This document shows, piece after piece, positions 17,034 to 48,773 of a DNA stretch of 64,000 bases (positions are counted from its first letter, which is position 1; every line of letters starts with the position of its first letter). Source of the DNA: Actinomycetota bacterium. GTDB taxonomy: Bacteria > Actinomycetota > Geothermincolia > Geothermincolales > RBG-13-55-18. The notes below the pieces were generated by a model that saw only the letters and a list, made by a program, of their open reading frames with translations, had not been told where the DNA came from and did no database searches. The position numbers and the translations under genes are program-made. The DNA is taken from positions 1,728 to 65,727 of the forward strand of contig JAFGDU010000098.1 in the NCBI GenBank assembly GCA_016931915.1, written 5' to 3'.

Positions 17034-17525
17034 ATGGAGACCGACCTGAAGAAGATAAAGAAAAAGGCAACGGCGCGCGAGGAGGAAGTCGATGCTTTCC
17101 TCGAGTGGTTGAAAATATCGCGGGTCTCCCAGCGCAAACTTGACGCTCGCCTGAAGAAACTGATGCGCGGGATCATGCCCGAATTCGACTGCACCAGGTG
17201 CGCGGCATGCTGCAAGGAGGCTTACGTGGTGCTCGAGACCGACGACATCGCGCGCCTCGCCGAAGCCCTGGACATGAAACGCTCCAAGTTCCGGGCCAAG
17301 TACGTCACCAGGAACGAGGACGGCGACGTGTGTCTTAACAAGCGGCCCTGCCCCTTTTTAAAAGACGACCTGTGCACCGTGTACGAAGCACGCCCCGACT
17401 CCTGCCGCGAATACCCCTTCTCCCTCGCGGTGGACAGCAAGGAGAAGATGGACAACATCAGCGCCAACTACACGGTCTGCCCTGTGCTCTTCCATACCCT
17501 GGAGCAACTGCGAGACTTCATCTAA
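17034..17525 (+). CDS. YkgJ-family (CxxCxxCC) cysteine-cluster protein
   Basis: FDCTRCAACC...CPFL...CTVYEARPDSCREYP pattern. ATG 17034 after GAGAGG. Confidence 0.65.
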   Translation: METDLKKIKKKATAREEEVDAFLEWLKISRVSQRKLDARLKKLMRGIMPEFDCTRCAACCKEAYVVLETDDIARLAEALDMKRSKFRAKYVTRNEDGDVCLNKRPCPFLKDDLCTVYEARPDSCREYPFSLAVDSKEKMDNISANYTVCPVLFHTLEQLRDFI

Positions 17526-19069
17526 GTATCCGCTATGCCCGACAGGTATATTTCCTCCGCGAGGTCGCAGGCCTCCTTCTGTAGCCCGGACATCACGGCC
17601 ATCCCGTCTCCAAGCTCCAGGCTAAGGTCGCTGCCCCCTTCGTATGCGGGCCATGCGGGCAACCCGTCATCGTTGGGGTCTCCCGCGCGGGCGAAGTTCA
17701 CCCAATAATGCATGATAGTCGAGGAAAGTCGTCTGTCAGGCTCGCCGTATCCCTCCCCCGTATCCAGCTCCCCGAAGACATAGGGCAGCTCGGACCCGTG
17801 GCAGGCGCAGAGATCCCTGCCCTGCTCGGTGGGGGGAACGCGGATGAAACGGTAGAGATAAGCCCTTCTCCCCCGCTCGCTGACACAGCGCGCGAGGAAA
17901 CGGCTCGGCGCCGCGAATTCGAAGGCAGTGACCATCTCGCTCAGGGCGGCTTTCACGCCCCCCTCGCGTCCGGGCGGGAAAAGCCGCAGCGCTTCCTCCG
18001 CCTGCTCCCCCGCCATGCGCCGCACGAACTTCGTGTAGTCGCCGGCGGAGCAATCGAGGCCGGCGAGGAAGAAGTTTGCCTCGTCCCGGTTTGACCCGAT
18101 GATGAGATCGACGTCGTGTATCTTTCCCCGGGAAAAGAGAGTCTCCGGCCGGTCCGGGAGCAGCCACCCGTCCACCACCGGCCCGAAATCCATGCCGCCG
18201 GGCAGCAGCCCTATCTCGAGGCGGGAGGCGGCCAGTATTTCCTCCTCCCCGCGTGCGCGCATGTCGGCCAGTACGTCGCGCGAGCCATCGCTGCCCAAGG
18301 CCCGCGCCAGCTTCCCTCCCACTTCCTCGGCCCGTGACAGGGAGCGGTACGCGGGGGGAAGCAGGTGTCTTATCCAGAAGGGAGAGCTCTCGGCTATGGC
18401 GCCGCCGAAGAGGCCCTCCGCCAGCGGGCTTGCCACGAGGTCCAGGATGCTGGTGGCGCCCGCAGATTCCCCGAAGAGGGTGACGCGCGACGCGTCCCCG
18501 CCGAAGCCACCGATGTTCCGTCGTACCCACTCCAGGGCGGCCAGCTGGTCCAGCAGACCGTAGTTGCCGGATACGCCCGCGGGCGATTCCCGTGAGAGGA
18601 GCGGATGGGCCAGGAAGCCTAAGGGACCAAGACGATAATTGATGGTCACCACGACGGCGCCGCGCCCGGCCAGCCCGCGGCCGTTGTACAGGGGAAGGCC
18701 GCGGTGGAGCTCCAGCGACGTCGAGCCGGAGAGGAAGGCGCCGCCGTGTATCCAGACCATAACCGGAGGCGGCTCCCCGGTCTCCCCCGCCGCCACCCAC
18801 ACGTTGAGGTACAGGCAGTCCTCCCCGAGTCCCCCCAGGCCGTACCAGGGGGCCTCGGGTTGGGGGCAGGAGTCGCCGAACTGCTTGCAGGGCCGTACGC
18901 CCTCCCAGGCGGGCACCGGCTGGGGCGGTTTCCAACGCAGCCTGCCGATAGGCGGCGCGGCGTAGGGGATACCCAGGAATTCCCATATTCCCTCCTCCAG
19001 CCTGCCTTCGACCATCCCGGCATCGGTGCTCACCGCACACCTGCACGGGCCGGTCTCCTTGAAGTCCAT
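17522..19069 (-). CDS. type B carboxylesterase/lipase family protein
   Basis: 515 aa. FLGIPYAAPP, EDCLYLNVW, HGGAF, nucleophile elbow GESAGA. Confidence 0.85.
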   Translation of the reverse strand: MDFKETGPCRCAVSTDAGMVEGRLEEGIWEFLGIPYAAPPIGRLRWKPPQPVPAWEGVRPCKQFGDSCPQPEAPWYGLGGLGEDCLYLNVWVAAGETGEPPPVMVWIHGGAFLSGSTSLELHRGLPLYNGRGLAGRGAVVVTINYRLGPLGFLAHPLLSRESPAGVSGNYGLLDQLAALEWVRRNIGGFGGDASRVTLFGESAGATSILDLVASPLAEGLFGGAIAESSPFWIRHLLPPAYRSLSRAEEVGGKLARALGSDGSRDVLADMRARGEEEILAASRLEIGLLPGGMDFGPVVDGWLLPDRPETLFSRGKIHDVDLIIGSNRDEANFFLAGLDCSAGDYTKFVRRMAGEQAEEALRLFPPGREGGVKAALSEMVTAFEFAAPSRFLARCVSERGRRAYLYRFIRVPPTEQGRDLCACHGSELPYVFGELDTGEGYGEPDRRLSSTIMHYWVNFARAGDPNDDGLPAWPAYEGGSDLSLELGDGMAVMSGLQKEACDLAEEIYLSGIADT

Positions 19070-19291
19070 AACGTATCCTACCCTCCGTTTTCCAGCGCGA
19101 TTATACTTTCAGCCTTTATTAATGATAGGGCAAACGGCGGCGGCGCGGGACTTAGCTGGAGGTGGGAGGTTTCCTCAACTGGGGCAATAAGGAAAGGACG
19201 ATCAATATGAACGTTTTCTCAAGGAATATCTCTTGCGTCCGATATAAAGAGACGGTGTTTGCTTCTACTGCTATAAGGGTGGTGAGTTTTC

Positions 19292-20227
19292 ATGAACGAG
19301 GAGAGGAGAGCAGGCTTGGGGAAGGGCAGATCGCGGCTCCTATACCAGATAACTCTTATGCTGGTCATAGTGCTGGTGATCATAGGCGTGACCGTCTTCC
19401 TGGTCGTCAACGGCGCTATGGATCGCCTGATCGAGGAGGACAAGCAGGACCGCATCGACTCGGAGGCCCAGATCATCTACAACGATGCCGTATATATATC
19501 CGACATCCAGCTCGCGCAGATGCTGGTGGATTTTCCGGAACTGGACGTCGCGGAGGTCCTCGCAGCCGTAAAAGAGAAAAGGATGCACGAATTCATTGCA
19601 TACGCCAACGAAGGGCTGAAGGAAGGCTTGGAGGCGGGGATGCTGGGGGCGGAGACGGTTATGATAGCAGACCCTACGGGCTCGACTTCCCTTGGCTATC
19701 CTTTTGCCCTGGCGTGCAGTGATGACGATCTGACATACGAGGAGATCCCGGAGAACATAATCACGGCCTTCGAGGAAGACGAGCACTATATTTACCTGGA
19801 GGAGGGCATCCCCGAGCTTGGCTTCGAGGGCGAATACCTGGTAACCCTCGTTTCGTTACGCCCTCAAGGCATCCCTACGGAATATATTTTCCTGGGCATC
19901 AGGCCCTTCGCTGAGGAGATCGCCCGCATAGACGATTTCTACAGCAGCGAGAGGAACCGGGTTACCTGGATCCTGGCGTTGGTGATCGGGGGCGGCATCG
20001 TCCTCATCTTCCTCATCACCTTCTTCATCCTGCAGCGCATGATCAACAAACAGATAACCCGACCCATAGACGAATTGACCGCCGTAGCCGGAGAGGTTAT
20101 GGACGGAAACCTGGACGTGGAGATCGATATACGCGAGGGCGAGGAGTTCGAGACCCTCAAGCGGGCTTTCAGGGAGATGCTGGTAAGCATCCGGGACGTA
20201 TTGAACAAAAGCATTGGTAAAGAATAG
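19292..20227 (+). CDS. membrane sensor-like protein ending in a HAMP domain (no output domain)
   Basis: TM helix, ~200-aa extracytoplasmic region, second TM helix, then HAMP-like ITRPIDELTAVAGEVMDGNLDVEIDIREGEEFETLKRAFREML, with the stop 15 aa later. Confidence 0.65.
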   Translation: MNEERRAGLGKGRSRLLYQITLMLVIVLVIIGVTVFLVVNGAMDRLIEEDKQDRIDSEAQIIYNDAVYISDIQLAQMLVDFPELDVAEVLAAVKEKRMHEFIAYANEGLKEGLEAGMLGAETVMIADPTGSTSLGYPFALACSDDDLTYEEIPENIITAFEEDEHYIYLEEGIPELGFEGEYLVTLVSLRPQGIPTEYIFLGIRPFAEEIARIDDFYSSERNRVTWILALVIGGGIVLIFLITFFILQRMINKQITRPIDELTAVAGEVMDGNLDVEIDIREGEEFETLKRAFREMLVSIRDVLNKSIGKE

Positions 20228-20274
20228 TGCGGGAACGGGCTGCCGTTAGTCGGCTGCTGGAGAGTTGGCTGCAT

Positions 20275-20302
20275 CAGGCCGGGGCAATAATACCCCGGCC
20301 TG
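20275..20302 (+). terminator. GC-rich hairpin after the HAMP gene, between convergent genes
   Basis: CAGGCCGGGG-caataata-CCCCGGCCTG followed by atatcttt. Confidence 0.45.
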
Positions 20303-20380
20303 ATATCTTTGCAGCGATTCAGGTGGTCCGAACCTCCGGTGCAGGGTTTCGGTTGACCAGCCTGCCGCAGCTCGCCGCGG

Positions 20381-21133
20381 TCAGAGGTCGGCCTTCTCGA
20401 AAAGCAGCATGGATATATAGAGCAATGCGGCGGCCAGAACGGAAAGAAAGAGGATGCCGGGAAGGAGTTCCGCCAGGCCCGCCGCGCCCACAACGGCCTC
20501 GGAGGACCGGCTGAAGAGGGCTGTAGGCGCGAGCTCCCACGGGAGCGGCAGCAATCCCAGCAGCAGTGATACTACGAAGAAAAGGACCAGGGAAAGCACC
20601 CCGGACAACACCGCTCTTCTGGTTACAACTCCCATGAAGATGGTCAGGGCGAGCAGCATGCACAGGCAGGCGGCACAGGCAATGAGGGATTCCAGCACGC
20701 CCCAGAAGCGCAGCCCGCCGAAGAGCAACTCGGTGTAAATGGCGAAGCAGGCATGCCCCAAGACCAGGCCCACGAGTATGAGCAGGGTATAGGAGACGAA
20801 ACCGCTCCCGATCACGGCCCTGCGGTTTATGGGCTTGGTGAAGAGTATCTCGAAGAAACGGCTGTTTCTCTTGCCGGCCGTGATACCCACTGCCAGGAGC
20901 ACCACGATGAGGGTGATTATCTGGGTTATATTATCGAAATACTGCGTCGCGGCGCTGAGGGCCGTCGTGTCCCTTAAGATCACCTGGAACTCCTCCGACT
21001 CCGGCAATATTTTCGGGAGCACCTTCATCAACACGGGGCTTATGATGCCGAAAACCACAAAAGCCCCGACTATGACGTAAGCCCTGTAAGTCCTGACCGC
21101 TTCGAGCAGGTCCTTTCTAAGCTGGTTCTTCAA
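20381..21133 (-). CDS. ABC-2 type transporter permease
   Basis: 250 aa, six predicted hydrophobic helices. Overlaps the upstream ATPase gene by 17 nt. Confidence 0.7.
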   Translation of the reverse strand: MKNQLRKDLLEAVRTYRAYVIVGAFVVFGIISPVLMKVLPKILPESEEFQVILRDTTALSAATQYFDNITQIITLIVVLLAVGITAGKRNSRFFEILFTKPINRRAVIGSGFVSYTLLILVGLVLGHACFAIYTELLFGGLRFWGVLESLIACAACLCMLLALTIFMGVVTRRAVLSGVLSLVLFFVVSLLLGLLPLPWELAPTALFSRSSEAVVGAAGLAELLPGILFLSVLAAALLYISMLLFEKADL

Positions 21134-22064
21134 CCCGATCTCCCCTGGTCAGCGAGATATATACCTCCTCGAGGGTTGGCGACCTCTTTACGAATCTCAT
21201 CAGTTCCAGCCCTGCCTCGGCGATGAGCGCCGGTATCGCCTTTCCCGCGCGTGACACGTCCGACACCACCACGCTCAGGGTGTTTCCATCCACCGTGAGG
21301 GTATTCACCCAGGGCATGTCTTTTAGGTTCCCCGCGAGGGCCTCCGCACCCTCCCTTACCTCCAGGATGAAGGCATTGCCTTCGGGGCGGGACCTGATAT
21401 CGGCGAGGGGCGCGTCGAGGATCTTCACGCCGCTGTCTATCATCAGCACGTCATCGCATATCCTCTCCACGTCCTCCAGAAGATGCGTGGAGACGAGCAC
21501 CGCAGCCCTGCCCTTCAGGCGCTCGATATAGGTGATGACCTCGTAGCGCCCCAGGGGGTCGAGCCCGGACGTGGGCTCGTCGAGTATCAGCAGCTCCGGC
21601 TCGCCCATCAACGCCTGGGCCATCCCCAGCCTCTGGCGTTCCCCCCTGCTGAACCCCTCTATCTTTCTCTTCTGCAGCCTCTCCAGGCCGAACTCCTGCA
21701 TCACTTCCGCGACGCGAAGCTTTATCGCTTTCCTGTCCCGCGAAAAGAACCCCCCGATGTATTCCAGGAACTCGGGGGGACGCATCCACTCAACGAAGAC
21801 CGGTACGTCGGGCATATAGCCGATCTTAGCGAGACCCTCCATATCATGCCGGTCCGCCCGCTTTCCGAAACGGAAGACCTCCCCTTCGTCGGGGGAGATG
21901 AGGCCGAGGATCATCTTCAGGGTGGTCGTCTTTCCCGCGCCGTTGGGGCCGACCAGGCCCACCTGCCGGCCGGGGCGGACCGTGAAGCTCACGCGGTCCA
22001 CGGCGGTCAGCTCGCCGAATCTCTTGCTGAGGCCGGTGACCTCCACCACGCTGTCAGGGCCCAT
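21117..22064 (-). CDS. ABC transporter ATP-binding protein
   Basis: Walker A GPNGAGKTT, signature FSRGERQRL, Walker B LILDEPTSGLD. Confidence 0.9.
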   Translation of the reverse strand: MGPDSVVEVTGLSKRFGELTAVDRVSFTVRPGRQVGLVGPNGAGKTTTLKMILGLISPDEGEVFRFGKRADRHDMEGLAKIGYMPDVPVFVEWMRPPEFLEYIGGFFSRDRKAIKLRVAEVMQEFGLERLQKRKIEGFSRGERQRLGMAQALMGEPELLILDEPTSGLDPLGRYEVITYIERLKGRAAVLVSTHLLEDVERICDDVLMIDSGVKILDAPLADIRSRPEGNAFILEVREGAEALAGNLKDMPWVNTLTVDGNTLSVVVSDVSRAGKAIPALIAEAGLELMRFVKRSPTLEEVYISLTRGDRVEEPA

Positions 22065-22341
22065 AGTCCTCCCCTCCGCCCTCCGCCGGCATGCGTCCCC
22101 AGGCCAGGTATATGATGGGCCCGATGATGTTAATGAGCACGATGACGACGACCCACAAGAGTTTGCTGCCGTAGCGCACCCTCTCGCGCCTGGCCACGTC
22201 CACCAGGGCGTACACCATGAGCGCGAGTTGGATTATTATCACCGGCAGGAGATAGAGGACCAGCTCGCCCGTTGTTATGCCGTTCCCAGCCTCCACGATA
22301 TCACCACCGTCTCCTTCCCACCTTTTCCCGTACGTTGGCAA
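22054..22341 (-). CDS. small membrane protein, PLD-nuclease-N-terminal (PLDc_N)-like
   Basis: 95 aa, two helices. LLWVVVIVLINIIGPIIYLAWGR is typical of this family, which often precedes ABC-2 operons. 11-nt overlap with the ATPase gene. Confidence 0.55.
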   Translation of the reverse strand: MPTYGKRWEGDGGDIVEAGNGITTGELVLYLLPVIIIQLALMVYALVDVARRERVRYGSKLLWVVVIVLINIIGPIIYLAWGRMPAEGGGEDYGP

Positions 22342-22393
22342 ATGATATCGGACACGGACATTCTACCTTGTACCTATGCCTTGCGTCTCGATA

Positions 22394-22463
22394 GGGGTCG
22401 TATCTTTATTTTTGAATTCACAACCAGAAATTGTCAGGCTATTCAAGAATAAAGATGTGACCC
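22394..22463 (+). repeat. family A hairpin element, copy A1
   Basis: GGGGTCGTATCTTTATTTTTGAAT-tcacaaccagaaattgtcaggct-ATTCAAGAATAAAGATGTGACCC. Confidence 0.9.
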
Positions 22464-22721
22464 TGGAGCCGGACATTGGGTTTGGACAACTCGACCCGCC
22501 AGTTGGATGGTAAGATATTGGCATCAGGAGGTTCATATGAGGGATTTCGACTGATGTTTGTTGCAGGAAACGGAAATGGAAAATAGCAACTCACAGCTAG
22601 AAAACAATCTCTACGGGCAAAGTCCCGTAAATTGGTGCATCATACTCAGAATACTGATATCAGGTAGTGTATTTGGAAAACCCCTGGTTAATCAAGGCTC
22701 TTACAATACCAGGAGGTTGCC

Positions 22722-23516
22722 ATGATAAGTTACAAAGAGTTACGAACGGTTACACCACACGATCCATTCATGTCTGGAGATAACCTTTCCTATTTTGTGG
22801 TAGCTTATTTCCCCAAAGCGGATCTCATGAGGATCTTGCGGAGGGGGATGTCTATACCTTCTGAAGAGATCATGGCCAGGGAATTCCCGACTGCAAAGCA
22901 GAGGAAGGGTATGATCCCGTTCTTGACCCTGTACAGCAGGTGCAACAATGTCCGCGAGCATATCTTCGATGTCACCGTGCGTCCGTACCTGGAGATCAAT
23001 TTCTTTTTCCCGGTCATTTACACCTACAAGGGCGAGGAGCATCTGTGCTCGTTCATGCCACTGCTCTACCTCGATCGCCTTTTCCACACAGTTGGCGGAT
23101 GCCTGCTAGGCTTGCGCAAACAATTCCACCCCAACTTGAGATTCACGGAGACCGACACGTTGTGCTCTTTCCATCTCGAAAACATCCTCAGCGCGAGTTT
23201 TCCGGATGATTCGATGCAAGAGGTAGATGAAGTCGACCCGTTCATCACGCAGATATTCAGAAAGCCGACCCTGACCTATTCCTATTTCCACAAGACCGAC
23301 TTCTACACGACGCAAGTGTTTGATGCCAAGAAGGTGTACAGAGCTTCGGCTGACTTCGAATGGAACTGCAAGGGCACCGTGATCAAGAGCGACGAGCATA
23401 CCTTCTGCAACTTCGCCGAGTACAGCTTCACGGTTTCACGGGCCATGAGCTACAAGAAATACTTCTACCCGAAATACCCTGTAGATTGGGAGCAAATAAC
23501 GGAGATCCAGATCTGA
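22722..23516 (+). CDS. hypothetical protein on a low-GC insert; possible acetoacetate-decarboxylase-like fold
   Basis: 264 aa. AGGAGG 5 nt before the ATG. 41 G+C in the first 100 nt, versus 71/100 at 21961-22060. The pattern YLEINFFFPV..LLYLDRLFHTVGGCLLGLRKQF..ETDTLCSF resembles ADC-family blocks (from memory only). Confidence 0.6.
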   Translation: MISYKELRTVTPHDPFMSGDNLSYFVVAYFPKADLMRILRRGMSIPSEEIMAREFPTAKQRKGMIPFLTLYSRCNNVREHIFDVTVRPYLEINFFFPVIYTYKGEEHLCSFMPLLYLDRLFHTVGGCLLGLRKQFHPNLRFTETDTLCSFHLENILSASFPDDSMQEVDEVDPFITQIFRKPTLTYSYFHKTDFYTTQVFDAKKVYRASADFEWNCKGTVIKSDEHTFCNFAEYSFTVSRAMSYKKYFYPKYPVDWEQITEIQI

Positions 23517-23541
23517 TCCCTTACGAGCTCGCGAAATAATA

Positions 23542-23612
23542 GGGGTCATATCTTTATCTTTGAAATCACGACCAGAAATTGCCAGATAATTTAAAAATAA
23601 AGATGTGACCCC
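23542..23612 (+). repeat. family A hairpin element, copy A2
   Basis: GGGGTCATATCTTTATCTTTGAAA-tcacgaccagaaattgccagataa-TTTAAAAATAAAGATGTGACCCC. TA on both flanks. Confidence 0.9.
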
Positions 23613-23650
23613 TATAGTTTAGAAGACGCGGTTCCCGCCTCTGAGAATGT

Positions 23651-23691
23651 AAAAAAACCAGGCCGGGGCATATACCCTCTGACCTGGTTTT
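23651..23691 (-). terminator. intrinsic terminator after the tRNA cluster
   Basis: Minus strand reads AAACCAGG-tcagagggtatatgccccgg-CCTGGTTT followed by TTTTT, 4 nt after the tRNA-Phe 3-prime end region. Confidence 0.55.
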
Positions 23692-23695
23692 ATGG

Positions 23696-23771
23696 TGGTG
23701 GCGAGAGAGGGATTTGAACCCCCGACGCCAGGATTTTCAGTCCTGCGCTCTACCAACTGAGCTATCTCGCC
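23696..23771 (-). tRNA. tRNA-Phe (GAA)
   Basis: Reverse complement GGCGAGATAGCTCAGTTGGTAGAGCGCAGGACTGAAAATCCTGGCGTCGGGGGTTCAAATCCCTCTCTCGCCACCA. 76 nt, anticodon loop CUGAAAA, encoded CCA. Confidence 0.95.
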
Positions 23772-23804
23772 TCTAGATATATAGACTCCCGTGGGAGTAA
23801 ATAT

Positions 23805-23882
23805 TGGCGGAACCGACGGGATTTGAACCCGCGATCTCCGGCTTGACAGGCCGGCGTGTTAACCTGGCTACACCACGGCTCC
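23805..23882 (-). tRNA. tRNA-Asp (GTC)
   Basis: Reverse complement GGAGCCGTGGTGTAGCCAGGTTAACACGCCGGCCTGTCAAGCCGGAGATCGCGGGTTCAAATCCCGTCGGTTCCGCCA. Anticodon loop CUGUCAA. Confidence 0.9.
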
Positions 23883-23963
23883 GCGAAAAAACCTGCTGTG
23901 GGGGCCGTTCGGGCCCCAGCAATTATATTATATTAAGTTGTCACCCCGGACAATCTTAACACC

Positions 23964-24039
23964 TGGTGCCCCCAACGGGATTTGAACCCGTGTCACCGCC
24001 TTGAAAGGGCGATATCCTAGGCCTCTAGACGATGGGGGC
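23964..24039 (-). tRNA. tRNA-Glu (TTC)
   Basis: Reverse complement GCCCCCATCGTCTAGAGGCCTAGGATATCGCCCTTTCAAGGCGGTGACACGGGTTCAAATCCCGTTGGGGGCACCA. Anticodon loop CUUUCAA. Confidence 0.95.
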
Positions 24040-24256
24040 ATACATCAAATCGTATGCGCTACTTACACCTGCATATATGATAACATCCCTGCCGGGATGT
24101 GCCCTGACCCAGGCCATAAAGATTTAAGCATCTTGGCAGTTCAATATCAATCCTTTTTGACCGATAAGTGAGGTGGGAGACGATATATGGGTTTTCCCGC
24201 CAGGAAAGGGCTTATTTTTATCTCAAGAGCCCTGCTGTTGCAAAGGACGAGTCCCT

Positions 24257-26434
24257 ATGGAAGATAGCAATAAACGGGATATAGAGCAGAAGGGGGGCGC
24301 CGACATCACGGGGGGTGATGAGGCACGGCTGAGGTCCGTCGTCGATATCTTCTCCCGCCTGTCCATCGCCTGCAAGTCCCGCATGCTCTATCCTGCGGAG
24401 CACCCCACCGCCATCGACACGGTGGTCCTGCTGCATGCCGTGATGGAGGACTCCCTACGCACCATACCCAGCATAGCGGTGAAGGTCGGAAAGGACAGCC
24501 TGGTCTACGAGAATTGGGTGGTGGGGCGCAGGATGGAGAGCCTGCGAGCCCTGGCCTCGCGTATCCGCTCCCTGAACATACAGGAGATATTCATCGATGC
24601 AGGCGCATCCTTCCAGGAGGCCGAGGCCTTCGTGGAACTGCTGGTCTTCGACCCCGAGGAACTGGAGAAGGTCGGGGGGGCGGAGGCCTTTTTAACCGCC
24701 AAAGGAGTTCACAGCATCGTAGTGGCAGAGAGCGAGGCCCAGAGGGCGGAGGAAGAGGATGCGGAGGCAGAACTTATCGCAGAGGAACTGGCGACGGCGC
24801 CAGAGGAGATAGAGAGACCCGAGGCCGCCTCCCCCGAGGAAGTAGGGGACTTACTCGAGTTGCTGCTCAACCCCGAGGAACTCGGCCGGGTGCTCATGGC
24901 GTTAACTGGCAAGGACGGCAAGCCCCTGGGCAAGAAGGAACTGGCCGGCGCCATCTTCTTCTTTCTAAAGGATGCCAACGCGATCGTGAGAAGCGAGTAC
25001 CCGGAAAGGCAGGAGGAGTGTTGGCGCTCGATGGCGGAATCCCTGCTCTTCCTGAATGCTGACGTGCGCAACCTGCTTCTGCTCGGCTATCTCTTCCCCC
25101 AGCTGCGGGAAGAGCCCGTATGCTCCGAGATCCTCAAGCAGTTCAACGCCCAGGAGATGGCCGACCTGCTGAGCATCTTCCTTCCCATCACGCCCGAGCT
25201 CACCCCAAAGACGGGGAGCCTGCTCAAGGCCATAGGTTTCCGAGATGGAGAGATCCGCAATACCCTGAGGCTGCTGCGCGCTAAACTGGTGGACCTGGGA
25301 CAGATACCCACCTCACTGCTGGAACCACTGGAAAAAGGGCTCGAGAGGGGCAGGCCCAAGAGCCAGCCCTCCACCAGACTCCCGACTTTCGAGGATATTA
25401 TGTCGTGCCTGGGTGAATACCGGCCCGAGGAGCTGGACGAGATCCGGCTTATCTCGGTCTACGACCCGTCCCTTGATATGATGGCGGAAACCACCCCCAT
25501 GCTCCTGGGCCTGCTGAAGGAGGGAGGCGACCTGGACAACTCGGGCAAGGTCGTGGAGCTTCTGCAGCAGAATTTCTGGGGTCTTGCCATGTCCGCGCAA
25601 TTAGACCTGGCGGCATCGGTGCTGGAGGGCACGCGCGAGATACTGCAGAACGGCGACCCGAATATCGACCCCTTCCGCTCCGAACTCAAACGCATGTTGG
25701 AGGAGGCGGCCAGCGAAAAGGCCATGAAGAGCACCATCGCGGCTGCCTGCAGACGGCGTGGTAATCCTCAGGCGGTGGAGGCACTCAAGCGCTACATGGC
25801 CGCACTGGGCGAGAAGGGGCTCGCCGCAATGGTCGAGGCCCTGGGTGCGGAGGAGGACATGTCCGTGCGTAAATATATAGTCGACGTGCTCACCGCCATG
25901 TGCCGCGACCGCGTCAGCCTCCTGGGTGCTTACGTGGACGATCCGCGCTGGTACCTGGTGCGCAACGTCGTATCCATCATGGCCAGGTTCCATGACCCGG
26001 AGACCATCCCCTATCTGCGCCGCACCTTCTTCCACCCCAACCCCAAGGTGAGATCGGAGACCATCCGCGCCCTGGGTTTGACCGGCGGCTATGGGGCGAG
26101 CGAGCTGCTCATGCAGGGGCTGCAGGACCCGGACGAGAGGATGCGCATCCTGTGCATCCGCTGGCTGGGAAGGCTCGAGGAGGTCCGGGCGGTAAGCCAC
26201 TTGATCATGATGCTGGAGGACAAGGAACCTGGCGGTGAGAGCATGGACGTGAAGAAGGAGATCCTGCTGAGCCTGGGCGAGATCAAGGCCCCTGAGAGCT
26301 ACGAGGTGCTGAGAAAATACAAGATAAAACAGAAAAGGTTCAGCCGTGCAGAATGGCAGGAGCTGAACGAGGCGGCAGCCCAGTCGCTGCAACGGCTGGA
26401 GATAAAATTCCCCCACCTGGAGAGAAGAAGATGA
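24257..26434 (+). CDS. HEAT-repeat protein with N-terminal domain paralogous to the downstream HD-GYP protein
   Basis: C-terminal HEAT/PBS-lyase-like repeats (DPRWYLVRNVVSIMARFHDPETIPYL, NPKVRSETIRALG, DPDERMRILCIRWLG). ATG 24257 (MEDSNKRD); the ORF is open from 24173. Confidence 0.65.
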   Translation: MEDSNKRDIEQKGGADITGGDEARLRSVVDIFSRLSIACKSRMLYPAEHPTAIDTVVLLHAVMEDSLRTIPSIAVKVGKDSLVYENWVVGRRMESLRALASRIRSLNIQEIFIDAGASFQEAEAFVELLVFDPEELEKVGGAEAFLTAKGVHSIVVAESEAQRAEEEDAEAELIAEELATAPEEIERPEAASPEEVGDLLELLLNPEELGRVLMALTGKDGKPLGKKELAGAIFFFLKDANAIVRSEYPERQEECWRSMAESLLFLNADVRNLLLLGYLFPQLREEPVCSEILKQFNAQEMADLLSIFLPITPELTPKTGSLLKAIGFRDGEIRNTLRLLRAKLVDLGQIPTSLLEPLEKGLERGRPKSQPSTRLPTFEDIMSCLGEYRPEELDEIRLISVYDPSLDMMAETTPMLLGLLKEGGDLDNSGKVVELLQQNFWGLAMSAQLDLAASVLEGTREILQNGDPNIDPFRSELKRMLEEAASEKAMKSTIAAACRRRGNPQAVEALKRYMAALGEKGLAAMVEALGAEEDMSVRKYIVDVLTAMCRDRVSLLGAYVDDPRWYLVRNVVSIMARFHDPETIPYLRRTFFHPNPKVRSETIRALGLTGGYGASELLMQGLQDPDERMRILCIRWLGRLEEVRAVSHLIMMLEDKEPGGESMDVKKEILLSLGEIKAPESYEVLRKYKIKQKRFSRAEWQELNEAAAQSLQRLEIKFPHLERRR

Positions 26435-27879
26435 ACCGGGAAGAGACCGAAGGTATGCAGGAGACAACGAACCGTAAACAAGAAGCCCTTGCCTACTTCC
26501 ACGCCAAAGGGCAGATGGAGCGGGCGCGGGAGGTGTTGAAGCTTTTCTCCGGTGCCAAGAAATCCGCCTCCATATATCCTCCGAACCACGAGATCTGCAT
26601 CAATTCCTTCACCGATTTCATGCGCTCCTTCAAACAATACCTGGCCTGGCAGGAGCAGTTCTCGCTGCGCATCGTGGGCGAGGAGTTCTTCTACGAGGAG
26701 AAGCTCATGCCCAGGGAGAGTGTCCTCTATTACCCCCTGATCAAGGAACTCAAGGACAAGGAGATAGGCGGCATCACCATCTTGGGCGGACTGACGCCGG
26801 GAGAATTTGTCGACTTCCTCTATCTCTTGAACCTCAGCGCGGAGGAGCTGCGGGCCAGGGGCGGCCTGCAGCGCCTCATGGAGCAGAGAGAGGTCGTCAA
26901 TATCACCCTGGACGAGCCGGGGACCTGGGAGGAAAGATCGCCCGAGATAAAGGAGAGGGGCTCGGCGCGCGAGGAGTATTTCGATGCCGTGGACGTTATC
27001 CGGGAGCTGGCCGACCAGGTGATGAGCGACCGCCGCCTCTCGGTGAGTAAGGCAAACCGCGTGGTGGGCGTAATGCTCAACCGCGTAGGCGAGAACCGCT
27101 CCGCAGTGCTGGGGCTGGCGACTATCAAGAACTATGACGAGTACACCTCCTTCCATTCCGTAAACGTCCTCATCCTCTCCCTCGCGCTGGGCTCCATGCT
27201 GCCCCTCGACCGCAGTTCCCTGATGATCCTGGGCACGGGGGCGCTACTGCACGACCTGGGAAAGATAACCATTCCGCAGAGTATCCTCAACAAGACCGGC
27301 CCCCTCACCACGCCCGAATGGCAGATGATGCAGGACCACCCGGTCAGGGGAGCCGACATCCTCATGGCACAGCCGGGCGTTCACCCCCTTTCGGTGATGG
27401 TGGCCTACGAGCATCACGCCCGCTACGACCTGACGGGCTATCCCAAGATCAAGTATAAGGACAGCCTCGGGCTCTTCTCCCGTATCGTGGAGGTCTGCGA
27501 CGTCTACGACGCCATGACTTCCGCGCGCCCTTACCAGAAGGCGCGCACTCCGGACCAGGCCATGCGCGTTCTGGTCAAGGACATGAACACCGTCTTCGAC
27601 CCCCTGATGGTGAAGGTCTTCGTGGACATGATGGGGGTCTTCCCAGTGGGCACCCTGGTGCGCCTGGCCACGGGCGAGGTGGCGGTCATTTACGAACCCG
27701 GGGAGAGCGACGCAATGTGGCCGCGGGTGAAGGTGATCCGCGACCCCGAGGGCGGTGAGATAGAGCCGCGCATCGTAGACCTCCTGTACATGAAGGAAAA
27801 GATCGGGGAGACGGGGCAGGCCATCCTGGAGTCCATCCACCCCGAGGATCTTGGCATCGATCCCCTGGAATACCTGTAA
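26431..27879 (+). CDS. HD-GYP domain phosphohydrolase (putative c-di-GMP phosphodiesterase)
   Basis: ATGA overlap with the upstream stop. HDLGK...HHARYDLTGYP signature. Confidence 0.85.
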   Translation: MNREETEGMQETTNRKQEALAYFHAKGQMERAREVLKLFSGAKKSASIYPPNHEICINSFTDFMRSFKQYLAWQEQFSLRIVGEEFFYEEKLMPRESVLYYPLIKELKDKEIGGITILGGLTPGEFVDFLYLLNLSAEELRARGGLQRLMEQREVVNITLDEPGTWEERSPEIKERGSAREEYFDAVDVIRELADQVMSDRRLSVSKANRVVGVMLNRVGENRSAVLGLATIKNYDEYTSFHSVNVLILSLALGSMLPLDRSSLMILGTGALLHDLGKITIPQSILNKTGPLTTPEWQMMQDHPVRGADILMAQPGVHPLSVMVAYEHHARYDLTGYPKIKYKDSLGLFSRIVEVCDVYDAMTSARPYQKARTPDQAMRVLVKDMNTVFDPLMVKVFVDMMGVFPVGTLVRLATGEVAVIYEPGESDAMWPRVKVIRDPEGGEIEPRIVDLLYMKEKIGETGQAILESIHPEDLGIDPLEYL

Positions 27880-27880
27880 G

Positions 27881-28741
27881 ATGTTACCTGAAGTGTTAAC
27901 GCAGGATATCGGCGAAGTGGAGCTGCAGTACCTGCATTACCCCGGTGACGGGCCTGCCTTGGTATTGCTCCACGCCACCGGTTTCCTGCCCTGGCTCTGG
28001 CACCCCATTGCCAGGGAACTGGTTGGGGATTTCCGCGTCATCGCCCCCTATTTCTGCGACCACAGGGTCTTCGATCCCGAGGAAGGGGGCTTGAGCTGGC
28101 TTCTCCTGGCCAGCGACCTCACGACCTTTATCAGGCGCCTGGAAATCGACGAGCCCTATATCGTGGGACATTCCATGGGAGCCACCGTCGCCGCGATCGC
28201 CGAAGCACACATGGGCCCGCTGGCATCCCGCATGATGCTCATCGAGCCCATCCTCCTGCCCTCGGGTTTCTACGAGGCCGAGATAACGGTCGAACAGCAT
28301 CCGCTGGCCTCGAAATCCATCCGGCGCCGCAATGCCTGGAGCGACGAGGAGGAAGCCAGGGAGTACCTGGGCGAAAAAGACCTCTTCGCGAACTGGGACC
28401 GGGAGATGCTCGACCTGTATCTCCAGCACGGTATGAGCGAGGCAGACGGCGGCGCACTCACCCTGGCCTGCAGTCCCCGGCGGGAAGCGGCGCTCTTCAT
28501 GGGGGGCATGGAGATAGACCCCTGGCCGCTTCTGGAGAAGGTCGCCTGCCCCGTTCTCCTCGTGGAGGGCGAGAAAAGCGAGAACAGGCTGGTGATAGAC
28601 CTGAGCCGTGCGGCATCCATCATACCCAATGCGGACCTGGAGGTGGTTACGGACGCCCGGCACCTCGTGCCCATGGAGAAGCCCCGCGAGGTGCTCGCCC
28701 TCATACGAGAGTTTGGGGTCAGCCGTTCAATCGACACGTAG
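27881..28741 (+). CDS. alpha/beta hydrolase; last 8 codons and stop lie inside MITE B1
   Basis: HATGF oxyanion region and GHSMGA nucleophile elbow. ATG 27881, 1 nt after the upstream stop. The C-terminus GVSRSIDT* is encoded by the element TIR. Confidence 0.8.
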   Translation: MLPEVLTQDIGEVELQYLHYPGDGPALVLLHATGFLPWLWHPIARELVGDFRVIAPYFCDHRVFDPEEGGLSWLLLASDLTTFIRRLEIDEPYIVGHSMGATVAAIAEAHMGPLASRMMLIEPILLPSGFYEAEITVEQHPLASKSIRRRNAWSDEEEAREYLGEKDLFANWDREMLDLYLQHGMSEADGGALTLACSPRREAALFMGGMEIDPWPLLEKVACPVLLVEGEKSENRLVIDLSRAASIIPNADLEVVTDARHLVPMEKPREVLALIREFGVSRSIDT

Positions 28742-28888
28742 GGTCACGTGTCCATATGCTTTCCAGCCGACAATCCGGCAGTTCCCCATAATAATCAGCG
28801 GCTAAAATGTGGTGCTCCTTCGTCAGAATATATACTGGTAATAGTCCGTGTACGCCTGACCCTACGTGTCGATTGAACGGCTGACCCC
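28715..28888 (+). mobile_element. family B MITE-like element, copy B1 (174 bp)
   Basis: Perfect 32-nt TIRs GGGGTCAGCCGTTCAATCGACACGTAGGGTCA / TGACCCTACGTGTCGATTGAACGGCTGACCCC. No ORF inside. Confidence 0.9.
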
Positions 28889-33912: not shown

Positions 33913-35199
33913 ATGGGAATCGCAGACTTTAAACGCAGGACGAAAAACAGCAAGACGGAGGACAAGGGTTATACGCCGGACTCTAAAGCAGAAGTCCAAG
34001 GCAGCAGCGCCAGCGAACCGACGGCCGCGCCCCACATGTATCATCATGGGGATGTGGACGGGGATGCGAGGGAAAGCGTGGTGGTCCCGCAGCCGGACGG
34101 CAAATGTATAACCGAGATAGGCGCGCGGCTCCGCGATATCCCCTTCTCCCCGCAGCGGCCTTACCTGCTCAGCCTGGCCGACGCGTACCGGCCGGATCTT
34201 TCGAAGATAAACCTGGACAGGCGCGGCTCCAAGCCGGACGACGTCCATCCCTATCCCGAGGGATTCGAAAAGGTGGTCTTTCCCAGCCTGGACGGCACCC
34301 CCCTGGTGGGGGTCCTGGGGGTGCACCGGGACGGCAGAAAAAGGCCGGGGGTGGTTTTCGCCCACGGTCTCCTCGGCTCCAAGACCAAAAACTACATACT
34401 GGAGGCCGCCCTGGAGGCCTATTCTTCCTGGGATTACAACGTCTTCGCGCTGGACATGCGCAACTTCGGGGAGAGCCAGTGGCTCTCTAACTCTCCTACC
34501 ACTGGGGGCTGGAAGGAAGGCCAGGATATCCTCGGCGCCTGCCGCTTTCTGGGCGAAGTGGAGGAGGTGACCAGCGTAGCCGCCGTGGGGTTCAGCCTGG
34601 GCGCCGGCTCGGTGGTCAACGCCGCCTATCAATGCCGGCAACATCCGTACATCACCGGGGGAGCCATGGCCTGGAGCAGCTATGCCTCCATGGAAAAGAT
34701 GATGTCCCTCATGAGCAGCCGCCCCCCGCTGGGCGATCCATTCTTACCCATCTACATGGCTTTCTTATGTCTTACCGAGATACGCCGCCTGGAAATACGC
34801 CGTCAGATGAGCAAGGAAGCCGCCAGCGCCTACCTGGGCGACAAGCCATTCTCCCCGGATTACAGGCGGTACATACGGGAGATATCCGCCCCCCACTACG
34901 GCCTCGACGAGGAGACGATGTACGCCCTCTCCAGCCCGAAGGAATTCATATCCCAGGTGGACGTGCCGCTGATGCTGGTCCACGCCGAGGACGATCCCGT
35001 CTGCCGCGTCGAGGAGATGGAGGAGCTTCGCCGCTCCGCCGGAGGCAACCCCAACGTCGACATCTGGGTGCTGCCGACCGGCTATCACTGCGGTTTTAAG
35101 GGTTTCGACCAGGATTGGTACTGGTCCGTGATGCGCACCTTCCTCGACTACTGGGCGGACCGGACCGAGGAAGCCGATTCAGCCGCGATAGCATCCTAG
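33913..35199 (+). CDS. alpha/beta hydrolase
   Basis: 428 aa. FAHGLLG, nucleophile elbow GFSLGAG, late HAEDDP and GYHCGF. The stop TAG overlaps the first G of hairpin A3. Confidence 0.75.
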   Translation: MGIADFKRRTKNSKTEDKGYTPDSKAEVQGSSASEPTAAPHMYHHGDVDGDARESVVVPQPDGKCITEIGARLRDIPFSPQRPYLLSLADAYRPDLSKINLDRRGSKPDDVHPYPEGFEKVVFPSLDGTPLVGVLGVHRDGRKRPGVVFAHGLLGSKTKNYILEAALEAYSSWDYNVFALDMRNFGESQWLSNSPTTGGWKEGQDILGACRFLGEVEEVTSVAAVGFSLGAGSVVNAAYQCRQHPYITGGAMAWSSYASMEKMMSLMSSRPPLGDPFLPIYMAFLCLTEIRRLEIRRQMSKEAASAYLGDKPFSPDYRRYIREISAPHYGLDEETMYALSSPKEFISQVDVPLMLVHAEDDPVCRVEEMEELRRSAGGNPNVDIWVLPTGYHCGFKGFDQDWYWSVMRTFLDYWADRTEEADSAAIAS

Positions 35200-35269
35200 G
35201 GGTTACATCTTTATTTTTGAATTCGTAACCAGAAATTGGCAGGCTATTCAATAATAAATATGTGACCCT
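35199..35269 (+). repeat. family A hairpin element, copy A3 (degenerate arms)
   Basis: GGGGTTACATCTTTATTTTTGAAT-tcgtaaccagaaattggcaggct-ATTCAATAATAAATATGTGACCC. Confidence 0.85.
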
Positions 35270-35304
35270 CAAACCATTTCTCGATTTTAAGGACCTGACC
35301 CCTT

Positions 35305-36163: not shown

Positions 36164-37039
36164 GTGATGAGCGCAGGGCTGCGCGCGGAACTGACCCAGT
36201 CGCTGAGGATGATCGCCTATTCCACGCTGGCCTCTTCCAGATATTATCACTGGATGCTGCGCGAACGTCCCGAGCGCGCAAAGGGCCGTGTCGATATCGG
36301 AGACGCCCGCATCTTCTACCTCTCCTGCGGGCGGGGAGAACCGCTGCTGCTGCTGCACGGCGGTTTCGCCTACGCCGAGACGTGGGTGGGACAGACGCCG
36401 GAACTGGCCCAACGCTACCGGGTGATCGCCCCCGATTCCCGCGGCCACGGCCGCAGCACCCTGGGCACGAAGCCCATCACCTACCGGCAGATGGCGGAGG
36501 ACATGGCGGCGTTGGTGGAGAGGCTGGGCCTGGGCGGCGTCCACCTCATCGGGTGGAGCGACGGCGGCTGCACCAGCCTGGCCATGGCTTTGCAGCGGCC
36601 CGACCTCGTACGCAGCATGGTGCTGCTGGGCACGCCATTCAACACCGATAACTACAGCGCCGAGGGCTGGCGCCAGATGGAGAGCATCCTCGACCCGCGC
36701 TCTCTGTCCATGCTCAGCCTGAGATCCATGCGCCGCATGATGAACCCCGAACCGCACCGGGGCAAAGAGTTCCTGGAGGAGATGTCCCGGATGTGGAGGA
36801 CCCTGCCGGACTTCACTACAGAAGACCTTGGCCGCATCGAGGCTCCGACCCTGGTCATAGGCTGCGACCGCGACGAGTTCCTCTCCCTGTGGCCCGATCC
36901 TCTGCAGGTGTTCAAGGACACCACAGCGGCCATCCCGAACGCCCGGCTGGAGATCGTCAGGGGAGGTACGCACTTCGTAAGCCTGGAACGAGCTCGCGAG
37001 GTCAACCGGCTCATCCTCGACTTTCTCGCCTCCCTCTAG
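36164..37039 (+). CDS. alpha/beta hydrolase
   Basis: LLLLHGGF, nucleophile elbow GWSDGG, late GGTHF. The stop TAG overlaps the first G of hairpin A4. Confidence 0.8.
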   Translation: MMSAGLRAELTQSLRMIAYSTLASSRYYHWMLRERPERAKGRVDIGDARIFYLSCGRGEPLLLLHGGFAYAETWVGQTPELAQRYRVIAPDSRGHGRSTLGTKPITYRQMAEDMAALVERLGLGGVHLIGWSDGGCTSLAMALQRPDLVRSMVLLGTPFNTDNYSAEGWRQMESILDPRSLSMLSLRSMRRMMNPEPHRGKEFLEEMSRMWRTLPDFTTEDLGRIEAPTLVIGCDRDEFLSLWPDPLQVFKDTTAAIPNARLEIVRGGTHFVSLERAREVNRLILDFLASL

Positions 37040-37110
37040 GGGGTCACATCTTTATTCTTGAATAGTCTTCCATTTTCTGGTTGTGAATTCAAAAATAAAG
37101 ATGTGACCCC
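37039..37110 (-). repeat. family A hairpin element, copy A4 (reverse orientation)
   Basis: GGGGGTCACATCTTTATTCTTGAAT-agtcttccattttctggttgtga-ATTCAAAAATAAAGATGTGACCCC. TA on both flanks. Confidence 0.9.
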
Positions 37111-37177
37111 TAATTGGAACACAACACCGTACCCAGGGGTCGAAAGGATGGGGTTAATGAAATCATAAGGAAATACC

Positions 37178-38732: not shown

Positions 38733-38784
38733 GGTCCTCTTATGATTACGCGCGGCGCAGCACGGCGCAAGACCCGCCTGTCCT

Positions 38785-38855
38785 GGGGGTCACATCTTTA
38801 TTCTTGAATAGTCTGCCAATTTATGGTTGTTAATTCAAATATAAAGATGTGACCC
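38785..38855 (-). repeat. family A hairpin element, copy A5 (reverse orientation)
   Basis: GGGGGTCACATCTTTATTCTTGAAT-agtctgccaatttatggttgtta-ATTCAAATATAAAGATGTGACCC, in a divergent intergenic region. Confidence 0.9.
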
Positions 38856-38944
38856 TGAAATGACCACTGAAACTTGGGGCGCCACTATAAACATCCAGCC
38901 CCGATGTTTCGATAATCAATAACGTAACCGGCGACGAGAAGAAG

Positions 38945-39808: not shown

Positions 39809-39999
39809 GGGGGTCAGCCGTTCAATCGACACAAAGTGCCAGGCGTACACGGATTACTCAATTGCTTATGTAGCAAAGCAACCAGTTGCTACGCGAAATG
39901 CAGGAAATATGTGGGCTAGATCATAGGTGCTTCTTGTTGAGATTCAGGCTGCAAATATGTGGACACTTGACCCTATGTGTCGATTGAACGGCTGACCCC
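39809..39999 (-). mobile_element. family B MITE-like element, copy B2 (191 bp, inverted relative to B1/B3)
   Basis: Ends GGGGGTCAGCCGTTCAATCGACACAAAG... and ...TGACCCTATGTGTCGATTGAACGGCTGACCCC. The subterminal blocks are swapped relative to B1/B3. Confidence 0.9.
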
Positions 40000-48599: not shown

Positions 48600-48773
48600 G
48601 GGGGTCAGCCGTTCAATCGACACATAGGGTCAAGTGTCCATATGCTTTCCAGCCGACAATCCGGCAGTTCACCACAACAATAGCGCAAAAGAGCTTGATG
48701 CTCTTTCGCCATATGTATTCTTGGAATAGTCCGTGTACGCCTGACCCTATGTGTCGATTGAACGGCTGACCCC
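48600..48773 (+). mobile_element. family B MITE-like element, copy B3 (174 bp)
   Basis: GGGGGTCAGCCGTTCAATCGACACATAGGGTCA ... TGACCCTATGTGTCGATTGAACGGCTGACCCC. Begins 4 nt after the thiolase stop and ends 2 nt before the trp -35 box. Confidence 0.9.

Follow-up and report, generated by a model that had tools for sequence, protein, structure and literature searches.

Two hairpins and a single gene beside tRNA-Phe

We have analyzed a single-gene module and two hairpin-forming repeats that lie next to a tRNA-Phe gene in a 64,000-nucleotide stretch of DNA. This stretch, here termed the window, corresponds to positions 1728-65727 of contig C163 in the metagenome-assembled genome (MAG) G000 (3.9 Mb, 187 contigs, 60% GC, 92% complete). 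The two hairpins, A1 and A2, form a direct repeat of 73 nt at window positions 22391-22463 and 23539-23611, with 86% identity between the copies. Each is itself an inverted repeat, with arms of 23-31 nt that are 84-89% complementary and a spacer of 23-25 nt. The first copy, A1, is a REPIN-like palindromic element (a term defined below) that occupies 22391..22466 on the + strand and has arms of ~25 nt (GGGGTCRYATCTTTATTTTTGAAT) around a loop of ~23 nt; the second copy of the same type, A2, occupies 23539..23614. Their calculated folding energies are -29.6 and -32.5 kcal/mol, corresponding to z-scores of -4.1 and -8.2 relative to shuffled sequences. Because both copies have the same loop (ACCAGAAATTG, in + orientation), A1 and A2 point in the same direction.

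The interval between the hairpins measures 1075-1076 bp and contains only one open reading frame (ORF) of more than ~115 amino acids, the 264-residue ORF264 (22722..23516, + strand), which we assign below to a divergent branch of the acetoacetate decarboxylase (ADC)-like superfamily with a predicted Schiff-base lysine, K133, and a conserved glutamate, E91. The gene is preceded by a leader/promoter region (22479..22721, + strand) with 88% nucleotide conservation in the metagenome contig L054 (ENA ERZ27256770 k141_123854), and its stop codon is followed after 22 nt by A2. Further to the right come a terminator-type hairpin (23657..23690) that is kept in relatives and in L054, and then the 3' end of tRNA-Phe (GAA; 23696..23771, - strand), which leads a conserved Phe-Asp-Glu tRNA cluster. 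The distance from A2 to tRNA-Phe is 83 nt. On the left, an ABC-2 operon (20381..22341, - strand) begins just beyond A1.

This layout is in good agreement with the first-pass annotation of the window, which was made from the letters of the sequence. Repeat search, folding and loop comparison all bear out its two same-orientation hairpins around one long ORF, although the 1078 bp that it gave for the enclosed interval is slightly too long. The coordinates likewise place the insert between the start of the ABC-2 operon and the 3' end of tRNA-Phe, at close to the ~80 nt from A2 that had been estimated. Recounting reproduces exactly both of its G+C counts, 41 for the opening 100 nt of the ORF and 71 for 21961-22060. 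As had also been remarked, there is no integrase: no ORF in 19000-27000 matched an integrase family, and the ORFs scanned gave only esterase, HAMP, ABC and PLDc_N matches.

The annotation went on to interpret the arrangement as a composite element in which the hairpins had mobilized the gene lying between them. We consider it likely that the locus is instead made up of three independent things that happen to lie side by side, namely a variable slot, an exchanged gene module and two separate repeat insertions, and that the hairpins did not carry the gene in. Read in this way, the locus is a mosaic of an ordinary kind and only modestly interesting.

A dispersed hairpin family linked to a RAYT-type transposase

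The hairpins A1 and A2 are far from unique. The 16-nt arm has nine matches in the window against 0.06 expected by chance, and a hidden Markov model (HMM) trained on five window copies identified, when G000 was searched with nhmmer, 19 loci on 13 contigs. These loci are mostly solitary, five are on the contig of the window, and all 19 share the common form GGGGTCAcATCTTTATTtTTGAAT - loop - ATTCAAgAATAAAGATGTGACCCC. Copies within the window lie between genes or abut stop codons. Further copies are found directly 3' of the stop codon of a hydrolase gene (35196..35271, + strand), directly 3' of that of an alpha/beta-hydrolase gene (37037..37112, - strand, loop reversed) and at an intergenic site (38783..38858, - strand, loop reversed). 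A1 and A2 are ordinary copies of this small mobile palindromic repeat that is scattered over the genome.

Among 41 relatives, ~17 loci of the family are present in G008 and 1-3 in each of G006, G009 and G011, with none in the others. Such patchy occurrence fits a mobile repeat and does not fit a conserved regulatory site. Also bearing on mobilization, if only indirectly, alongside the uneven copy numbers among congeners, is a family copy in the spacer between a thiolase and a ligase gene on contig C186 of G000, where the spacer is 122 nt long as compared with 73 nt in G006, a difference of 49 nt. An Rfam scan of 22300-23700 found no family, returning only sub-threshold matches of plant miRNA precursors to A2 as would be expected of a generic hairpin.

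The nature of the repeat is suggested by a locus in G008. At G008:C57:15459-16615 (L056:1459-2615), an ORF of 283 residues is enclosed by one left arm and, 1157 nt from it, one right arm in inverted orientation. The encoded protein matches PF01797 (Y1_Tnp, IS200-like) with an E-value of 5.8e-13, possesses the HUH (HYHLLL) and GRY motifs, and has a C-terminal extension of ~140 residues. The 73-nt hairpin corresponds to what would be left of such a unit if it lost its interior. REPINs are doublets of repetitive extragenic palindromic (REP) sequences that form hairpins and are associated with REP-associated tyrosine transposases (RAYTs) (Bertels & Rainey 2011, PMC3116915; PMC3337134; PMC5581495), and RAYT genes flanked by REP or REPIN repeats are a published arrangement (PMC3116915, PMC3337134). 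The presence of single arms around a Y1 (RAYT-type) transposase gene in G008 therefore leads us to regard the hairpins as REPIN-like and non-autonomous. The resemblance extends to an element of ~70 nt in which two inverted arms around a spacer are predicted to form a long hairpin, to the tens of intergenic copies with lineage-specific abundance, to the placing of a Y1/HUH transposase gene between inverted single arms (in the congener G008, not in G000), and to the co-existence of several repeat/transposase pairs within one genome, as seen in G000. The latter genome has two paralogs of the G008 transposase (C169:5201-6061 and C44:1655-2356; 35% identity), each flanked by its own GGGTCAG-headed repeat. 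The C169 repeat, with the arm GGGGTCAGCCGTTCAATCGACAC, forms three more doublets in the window (28715-28888, 39810-39999 and 48601-48773), and the C44 paralog is flanked by a GC-rich GGGGGGTCAGGCCCGG repeat. Since each paralog has its own repeat, several RAYT/REPIN-type systems are present in G000.

The elements also depart from the classical pattern. Classical REP arms are short imperfect palindromes with a 5' tetranucleotide GTAG or CGTC (PMC3733652). The arms of the present family have the head TAGGGGTCA (TA-GGGGTCA) in place of either tetranucleotide and contain no internal palindrome except GAATTC at the edge of the loop; it is for this reason that we use the name REPIN-like. Copy number is low (~19), the arms are AT-rich (GGGGTCACATCTTTATTTTTGAAT) in a genome of 60% GC, and the host belongs to an uncultured lineage labelled Actinomycetota rather than being a proteobacterium. 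Several of these points weigh against assignment to the REPIN/RAYT class. The arms are not internally palindromic; the extended G008 transposase reaches 76.6 bits on the NCBIfam model NF047646 (REP-associated tyrosine transposase) and so narrowly misses the cut-off of 80; and no cognate transposase of the A1/A2 family was found in the 92%-complete G000, in which a search for an autonomous element bounded by the arms yielded only stray half-arms at C107:4234, C186:9487, C2:435 and C58:8082. The term REPIN-like is accordingly used by analogy and association, and not for a demonstrated mechanism. We also considered an IS630/Tc1-like miniature inverted-repeat transposable element with TA target-site duplication, given that most copies have TA outside GGGGTCA. 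This candidate was dropped: the element is palindromic, the TA is possibly part of the arm, and the linked transposase is of the Y1 type.

In our preferred reading A1 and A2 would be separate insertions of a 73-nt REPIN-like non-autonomous element, a hairpin formed by two REP-type arms in inverted orientation. Its movement would depend on a RAYT-type Y1 (HUH) transposase that works in trans and acts on the hairpin in single-stranded DNA, with a preference for intergenic DNA near gene ends. We infer this mode of transposition, together with the order of events at the locus and any effect that A2 may have as a terminator or in stabilizing mRNA. The mobile-element side of the locus would then reduce to a known kind of process, the amassing of REPIN-like repeats in variable intergenic DNA, and not to a new cargo carrier. 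Its wider interest would be that an uncultured lineage labelled Actinomycetota has several families of REPIN/RAYT-type systems side by side, such systems having mainly been studied in Proteobacteria. In addition, expansion of one hairpin family in only two of ten congeners provides a natural comparison for the study of element spread.

The G008 transposase unit is situated directly downstream of the ortholog of the window carboxylesterase gene, and its right arm overlaps the stop codon of that gene. At the corresponding spot (window ~17520-17555) several congeners have 90-880 bp of variable DNA.

The gene module and the slot at tRNA-Phe

The relationship between hairpins and gene can be assessed from homologous loci. 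L054 encodes a protein 90% identical to ORF264 and aligns with window 22479-23514 (88% nucleotide identity) and then with 23652-23751, which comprises the terminator hairpin and tRNA-Phe. The A1/A2-type hairpin is present on neither side. Intergenic homology with L054 extending through the positions of the hairpins would have shown them to be clean insertions, but similarity in the flanks, on the left side of A1 and from the stop codon to the terminator, is no better than that of shuffled sequences, so that the comparison does not bear on this point. The upstream neighbor in L054 is an alpha/beta-hydrolase gene where G000 has the ABC operon. The same leader, gene and base composition are thus found without hairpins, and the first-pass annotation had itself named a hairpin-free, equally low-GC copy in a relative as evidence against its proposal. 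Elsewhere (G006, G007, G008, G029, a 'Deltaproteobacteria' MAG and several metagenome contigs), only ~22650-23500 is held in common, comprising the gene and its ribosome-binding region, and the neighbors differ. Application of the hairpin HMM to more than 12 homolog loci detected no copy beside the gene in any of them, the hairpin-rich G008 (~17 copies) included.

These data need to be set against the idea of a composite element, in which the same-orientation hairpins would be left and right ends and a Y1 transposase would move the gene as cargo in the manner of IS200/IS605-type elements. Y1 transposases of the IS200/IS605 group act on hairpin ends on one strand. In favor of this model, the two copies share an orientation and stand at the borders of the block conserved with L054, with 13 nt between A1 and the left border and 25 nt between the right border and A2. 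A carrier would be predicted to have such borders, and their position weighs against the reading that we prefer. The A1-A2 spacing (1148 nt) is also close to that of the arms around the G008 RAYT gene (1157 nt). On the other hand, the common orientation of two neighbors is about as informative as a coin toss, given that four of the six window copies are in '+' orientation. ORF264 is single-copy in G000, and there is no second instance of a hairpin-gene-hairpin unit. Moreover, the closest relatives of A1 are to be sought among other copies (identity 0.84-0.87) rather than in A2 (0.83). Taken with the mostly solitary, dispersed nature of the family and the hairpin-free module at tRNA-Phe in L054, these findings make a composite element very unlikely. 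A related idea, in which any same-orientation REPIN-like pair could serve as surrogate RAYT/Y1 ends so that any enclosed gene becomes mobilizable, with the present locus caught in place, is compatible with the border positions of A1 and A2 and with their RAYT-like spacing, but appears to us equally unlikely.

What does vary at this site is a segment considerably larger than the gene. In congeners with contigs that span the junction, the interval between the Phe-Asp-Glu tRNA cluster and the carboxylesterase gene (window 17522-19069) measures 60-330 bp. In G007 it is the gene for a 311-residue HAMP protein (window 19292-20227) that adjoins the cluster in place of the carboxylesterase gene, and relative to that genome 20228-23658 (3.4 kb) is extra in G000. 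This segment (20228..23658), which comprises the ABC-2 operon and the ORF264 module with both hairpins, is missing at the same site in eight of the eight congeners examined. As the esterase or HAMP gene stands beside tRNA-Phe in relatives, the whole of 20228-23658 is variable, the ABC-2 operon included. The operon encodes a permease (ABC2_membrane_2; 20381-21133), an ATPase (ABC_tran with a DrrA C-terminal domain; 21117-22064) and a small PLDc_N membrane protein (22054-22341), all on the - strand, and no counterpart was found in nine congeners, where there are only short paralogous matches. The first-pass annotation correctly anticipated foreign DNA in a landing zone beside tRNA-Phe, insofar as the gene is mobile and occupies a variable slot next to the 3' end of the tRNA. 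The empty site that it had expected, with the ABC operon abutting tRNA-Phe, was not found, the operon itself being missing in relatives.

Strain-specific DNA directly at a tRNA 3' end that is missing in congeners is reminiscent of tRNA-linked islands. We therefore weighed the possibility that 20228-23658 arrived whole at the tRNA-Phe 3' end, with the integrase since lost and the hairpins as later passengers. The sharp borders of the missing 3.4 kb, the lack of an ABC-2 operon counterpart in congeners and the location of the gene beside tRNA-Phe in L054 as well would all be explained in this way. The two borders also carry terminator-type hairpins of ~28 nt that share CAGGCCGGGGCA, one just inside the left edge (20273-20302) and one just outside the right edge (23657-23690). 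These paired hairpins may reflect a duplication at insertion, or may be two unrelated terminators. However, integrase and tRNA 3'-end direct repeat are both absent, the only shared word of at least 11 nt being CAGGCCGGGGCA, between the two terminator hairpins. L054 has ORF264 with an alpha/beta hydrolase gene upstream rather than the ABC operon, and GC content at third codon positions (GC3) is host-like in the ABC genes (0.78-0.82) as compared with 0.70 in ORF264, which points to contents with separate histories. The GC3 difference and the occurrence of ORF264 without the ABC operon in L054 suggest to us that the slot is a mosaic filled in more than one step, and a decayed island is in our view improbable, if still worth bearing in mind.

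Our preferred reading, a 3.4 kb variable slot between the carboxylesterase/HAMP gene and the tRNA-Phe 3' end that would have been filled piecemeal, gives no reason why ORF264 should stand beside tRNA-Phe in two lineages, and this counts against it. Recombination anchored in the conserved tRNA, or a site-specific system that has been lost, is a possible explanation.

The sequences of the border hairpins are CAGGCCGGGGCAATAATACCCCGGCCTG at 20273-20302 and CAGGCCGGGGCATATACCCTCTGACCTG at 23657-23690. G007 has one hairpin of this type only, in the interval from the HAMP gene to tRNA-Phe. In L054 the tRNA-Phe next to the ORF264 module (L054:1706-1805) has a T-arm that differs from those of all congeners of G000.

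ORF264 itself gives every sign, at the level of its sequence, of being a real gene under purifying selection. It has 58 homologs (42-90% identity), none of which carries a name or a Pfam domain, and a ratio of nonsynonymous to synonymous divergence (dN/dS) of 0.13-0.25. The family is rare, since clustering of 1.84 billion representatives at 50% identity gives 69 clusters for it, and is found in 5 of 51 genomes of the class. Four genomes of the class besides G000 have the gene, in other surroundings and with no A1/A2-type hairpin next to it. The gene has been exchanged horizontally between lineages. From G000 to G006 its synonymous divergence (dS) is 0.355, as compared with values of 0.64-0.97 in three core genes of the flanks, across congeners it is 0.36-0.52 against 0.59-1.0, and to G029, a genome of another family, it is only 0.435; the homolog in the 'Deltaproteobacteria' MAG has 81% amino-acid identity. 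We would describe the mobile unit as a self-contained module of ~1.04 kb, consisting of leader and gene, that has probably moved between lineages.

A contrary possibility is that ORF264 is an ancient resident, ancestral beside tRNA-Phe and lost repeatedly, with a low GC content that simply reflects a protein rich in aromatic residues and lysine. The composition of the gene is compatible with this. Although its GC content of 0.496 falls in the 1st percentile of the 1539 long ORFs of the genome, its GC3 of 0.697 is in the 17th percentile and falls short of the genome mean (0.774, sd 0.087) by just 0.9 sd, so that the low GC derives mostly from amino-acid composition at codon positions 1 and 2. 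The site in common with L054 could also be understood as ancestral. Long residence is nevertheless difficult to reconcile with dS values to congeners below those of the flanking core genes and with the similarity to copies in another family and in the 'Deltaproteobacteria' MAG. Congeners with the gene also hold their copy at other sites. We thus give an ancient resident little credence.

The leader (22525-22725; L054:640-832) has a duplicated CAGGAGGTT-ATG context. It contains a mini-ORF of five codons, which reads MRDFD in G000 and MSNFD in L054, and a small ORF of ~49-55 codons beginning MEN that, like the mini-ORF, is kept in L054. A leader block of ~130 nt is absent from the closer homologs L028 and L055. 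This block is possibly a leader with a regulatory role. In G008 the gene (G008:C21:839-1624; L025/L058) is split by an in-frame TAG into two ORFs of 142 and 97 residues, and in the G007 copy (G007:C35; L026) an early TAG leaves 250 residues. Such interruption fits an accessory gene.

A lone promoter-proximal gene between two same-orientation hairpin-forming repeats also resembles an integron cassette, and we asked whether A1 and A2 could be attC sites and ORF264 the cassette. Support for this idea comes from a distant homolog (54% identity) in L064 (JGI 3300024035, Ga0255364_10080). At L064:225-3600 this homolog is one of four single-gene units in a row that are separated and bounded by five same-orientation sites of 86-143 nt. 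At the start, four of the sites have GCCTAAC or ACCTAAC and the fifth has GGCTAAC, a deviant form. At the end, GTTAGGC or GTTAGGT is found in three sites, and the other two have a deviant GTTATGC or GTTAGCC. The presence of attC R'' and R' cores around the homolog indicates that the ORF264 family is found in an integron-type array in at least one organism. No attC-like sites were found around the closer homologs L055, L059, L068 and L069. The two hairpins of the present locus lack both the R'' core (RYYYAAC) and the R' core (GTTRRRY), the copies are scattered singly over many contigs, and the link is to a Y1 transposase rather than to an IntI integrase. We consequently regard the chance that the two hairpins are attC sites as negligible.

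The ORF264 protein and its gene neighborhoods

The first-pass annotation had suggested a resemblance of the protein to the ADC-like family, and this is upheld by the predicted fold and by a sequence link through a distant relative. An alignment-based AlphaFold2 model (39 sequences) has a pLDDT of 89 and a pTM of 0.87. In a Foldseek search of the PDB the top 24 matches are all ADC-like, with E-values of 1e-10 to 3e-8, probability 1.00, TM-scores of 0.50-0.59 and 9-15% sequence identity; the first match after these has an E-value of 8e-3. The matched structures comprise MppR (4jm3/4jmc), ADCs (3bgt/3c8w/3cmb/3bh2, among them CaADC 3bh2 and CvADC 3bgt), Swit_4259 (5upb) and Sbi00515 (4zbo/4zbt/6eej). 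The match to the fold is over the full length, and the proteins are of similar length. By sequence, the distant family member P0208 scores 32.5 bits on the ADC-like PF06314, above the cut-off of 29.8, with three others at 28-29 bits, and P0208 aligns with the ORF264 profile at 99.3% probability.

Some observations argue the other way. ORF264 gave no match in profile searches of Pfam (at E<=1), NCBIfam or the PDB, and profile-profile alignment with true ADCs was not significant (probability 1.2%), so that the sequence evidence for an ADC link is indirect. Alignment with hhalign of a profile of close homologs to a single true ADC, or to an unannotated 270-residue neighbor in L061, also gave nothing, nor did a phmmer search of the PDB with P0208. 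We nonetheless take ORF264 to be a divergent member of the ADC-like superfamily, an assignment that the modelled fold and the transitive sequence link together support.

The likely catalytic residues can be proposed by comparison with true ADCs. E91 and K133 are invariant in 30 diverse members of the family, the lysine occurring in the motif G-x-x-x-G-x-x-K with the glutamate ~42 residues upstream. The non-significant hhalign alignment places Y89-L-E91 on the Y-L-E80 of the ADC and G-L-R-K133 on F-P-K119, the lysine that is K115 in CaADC. In ORF264 and its close relatives the motif around K133 is L-R-K133-Q/E, as compared with P-K-K in true ADCs. The second lysine of true decarboxylases is reportedly K116 in CaADC. 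The true (family I) ADCs thus have a K115-K116 pair where ORF264 has R-K-Q. MppR and Sbi00515 carry out Schiff-base chemistry of the aldolase-dehydratase or hydratase type. With Q/E in place of the second lysine, an aldolase/dehydratase- or hydratase-like activity as in these two proteins appears likelier for ORF264 than decarboxylation, and by analogy this is the type of chemistry that we would expect. In our proposal, K133 of ORF264 would form a Schiff base with the substrate, a keto acid or carbonyl compound, and E91 would assist. The protein would define a rare ADC-like clade that has no Pfam family and has been exchanged between distant lineages, once as an integron-type cassette.

The genomic contexts of the homologs provide some indication of the pathway involved. 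In G006 the homolog is directly upstream of thiolase, acyl-CoA ligase, Fer4-nitroreductase and acyl-CoA dehydrogenase genes. L061-63 have the homolog together with genes for a luciferase-like oxygenase, ligase, nitroreductase and thiolase, followed immediately downstream by a true PF06314 gene, and in L065 the same gene set is divergently transcribed behind a TetR gene. With thiolase, acyl-CoA ligase, nitroreductase and flavin-oxidoreductase genes as recurrent neighbors, ORF264 may reasonably be regarded as a candidate for a new reaction that depends on a Schiff base and belongs to acyl-CoA or keto-acid metabolism. In G000 the protein presumably works with an equivalent set on C186 (C186:3011-9402), an operon of thiolase, acyl-CoA ligase, Fer4-nitroreductase and two acyl-CoA dehydrogenase genes that is 78-81% identical to that of G006. 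The C186 operon contains no ORF264; a hairpin of the A1/A2 family lies between its first two genes (thiolase and ligase), and a stray half-arm follows the last (C186:9487). In L059 and L031 the homolog is found near genes for FAD oxidoreductases and short-chain dehydrogenases.

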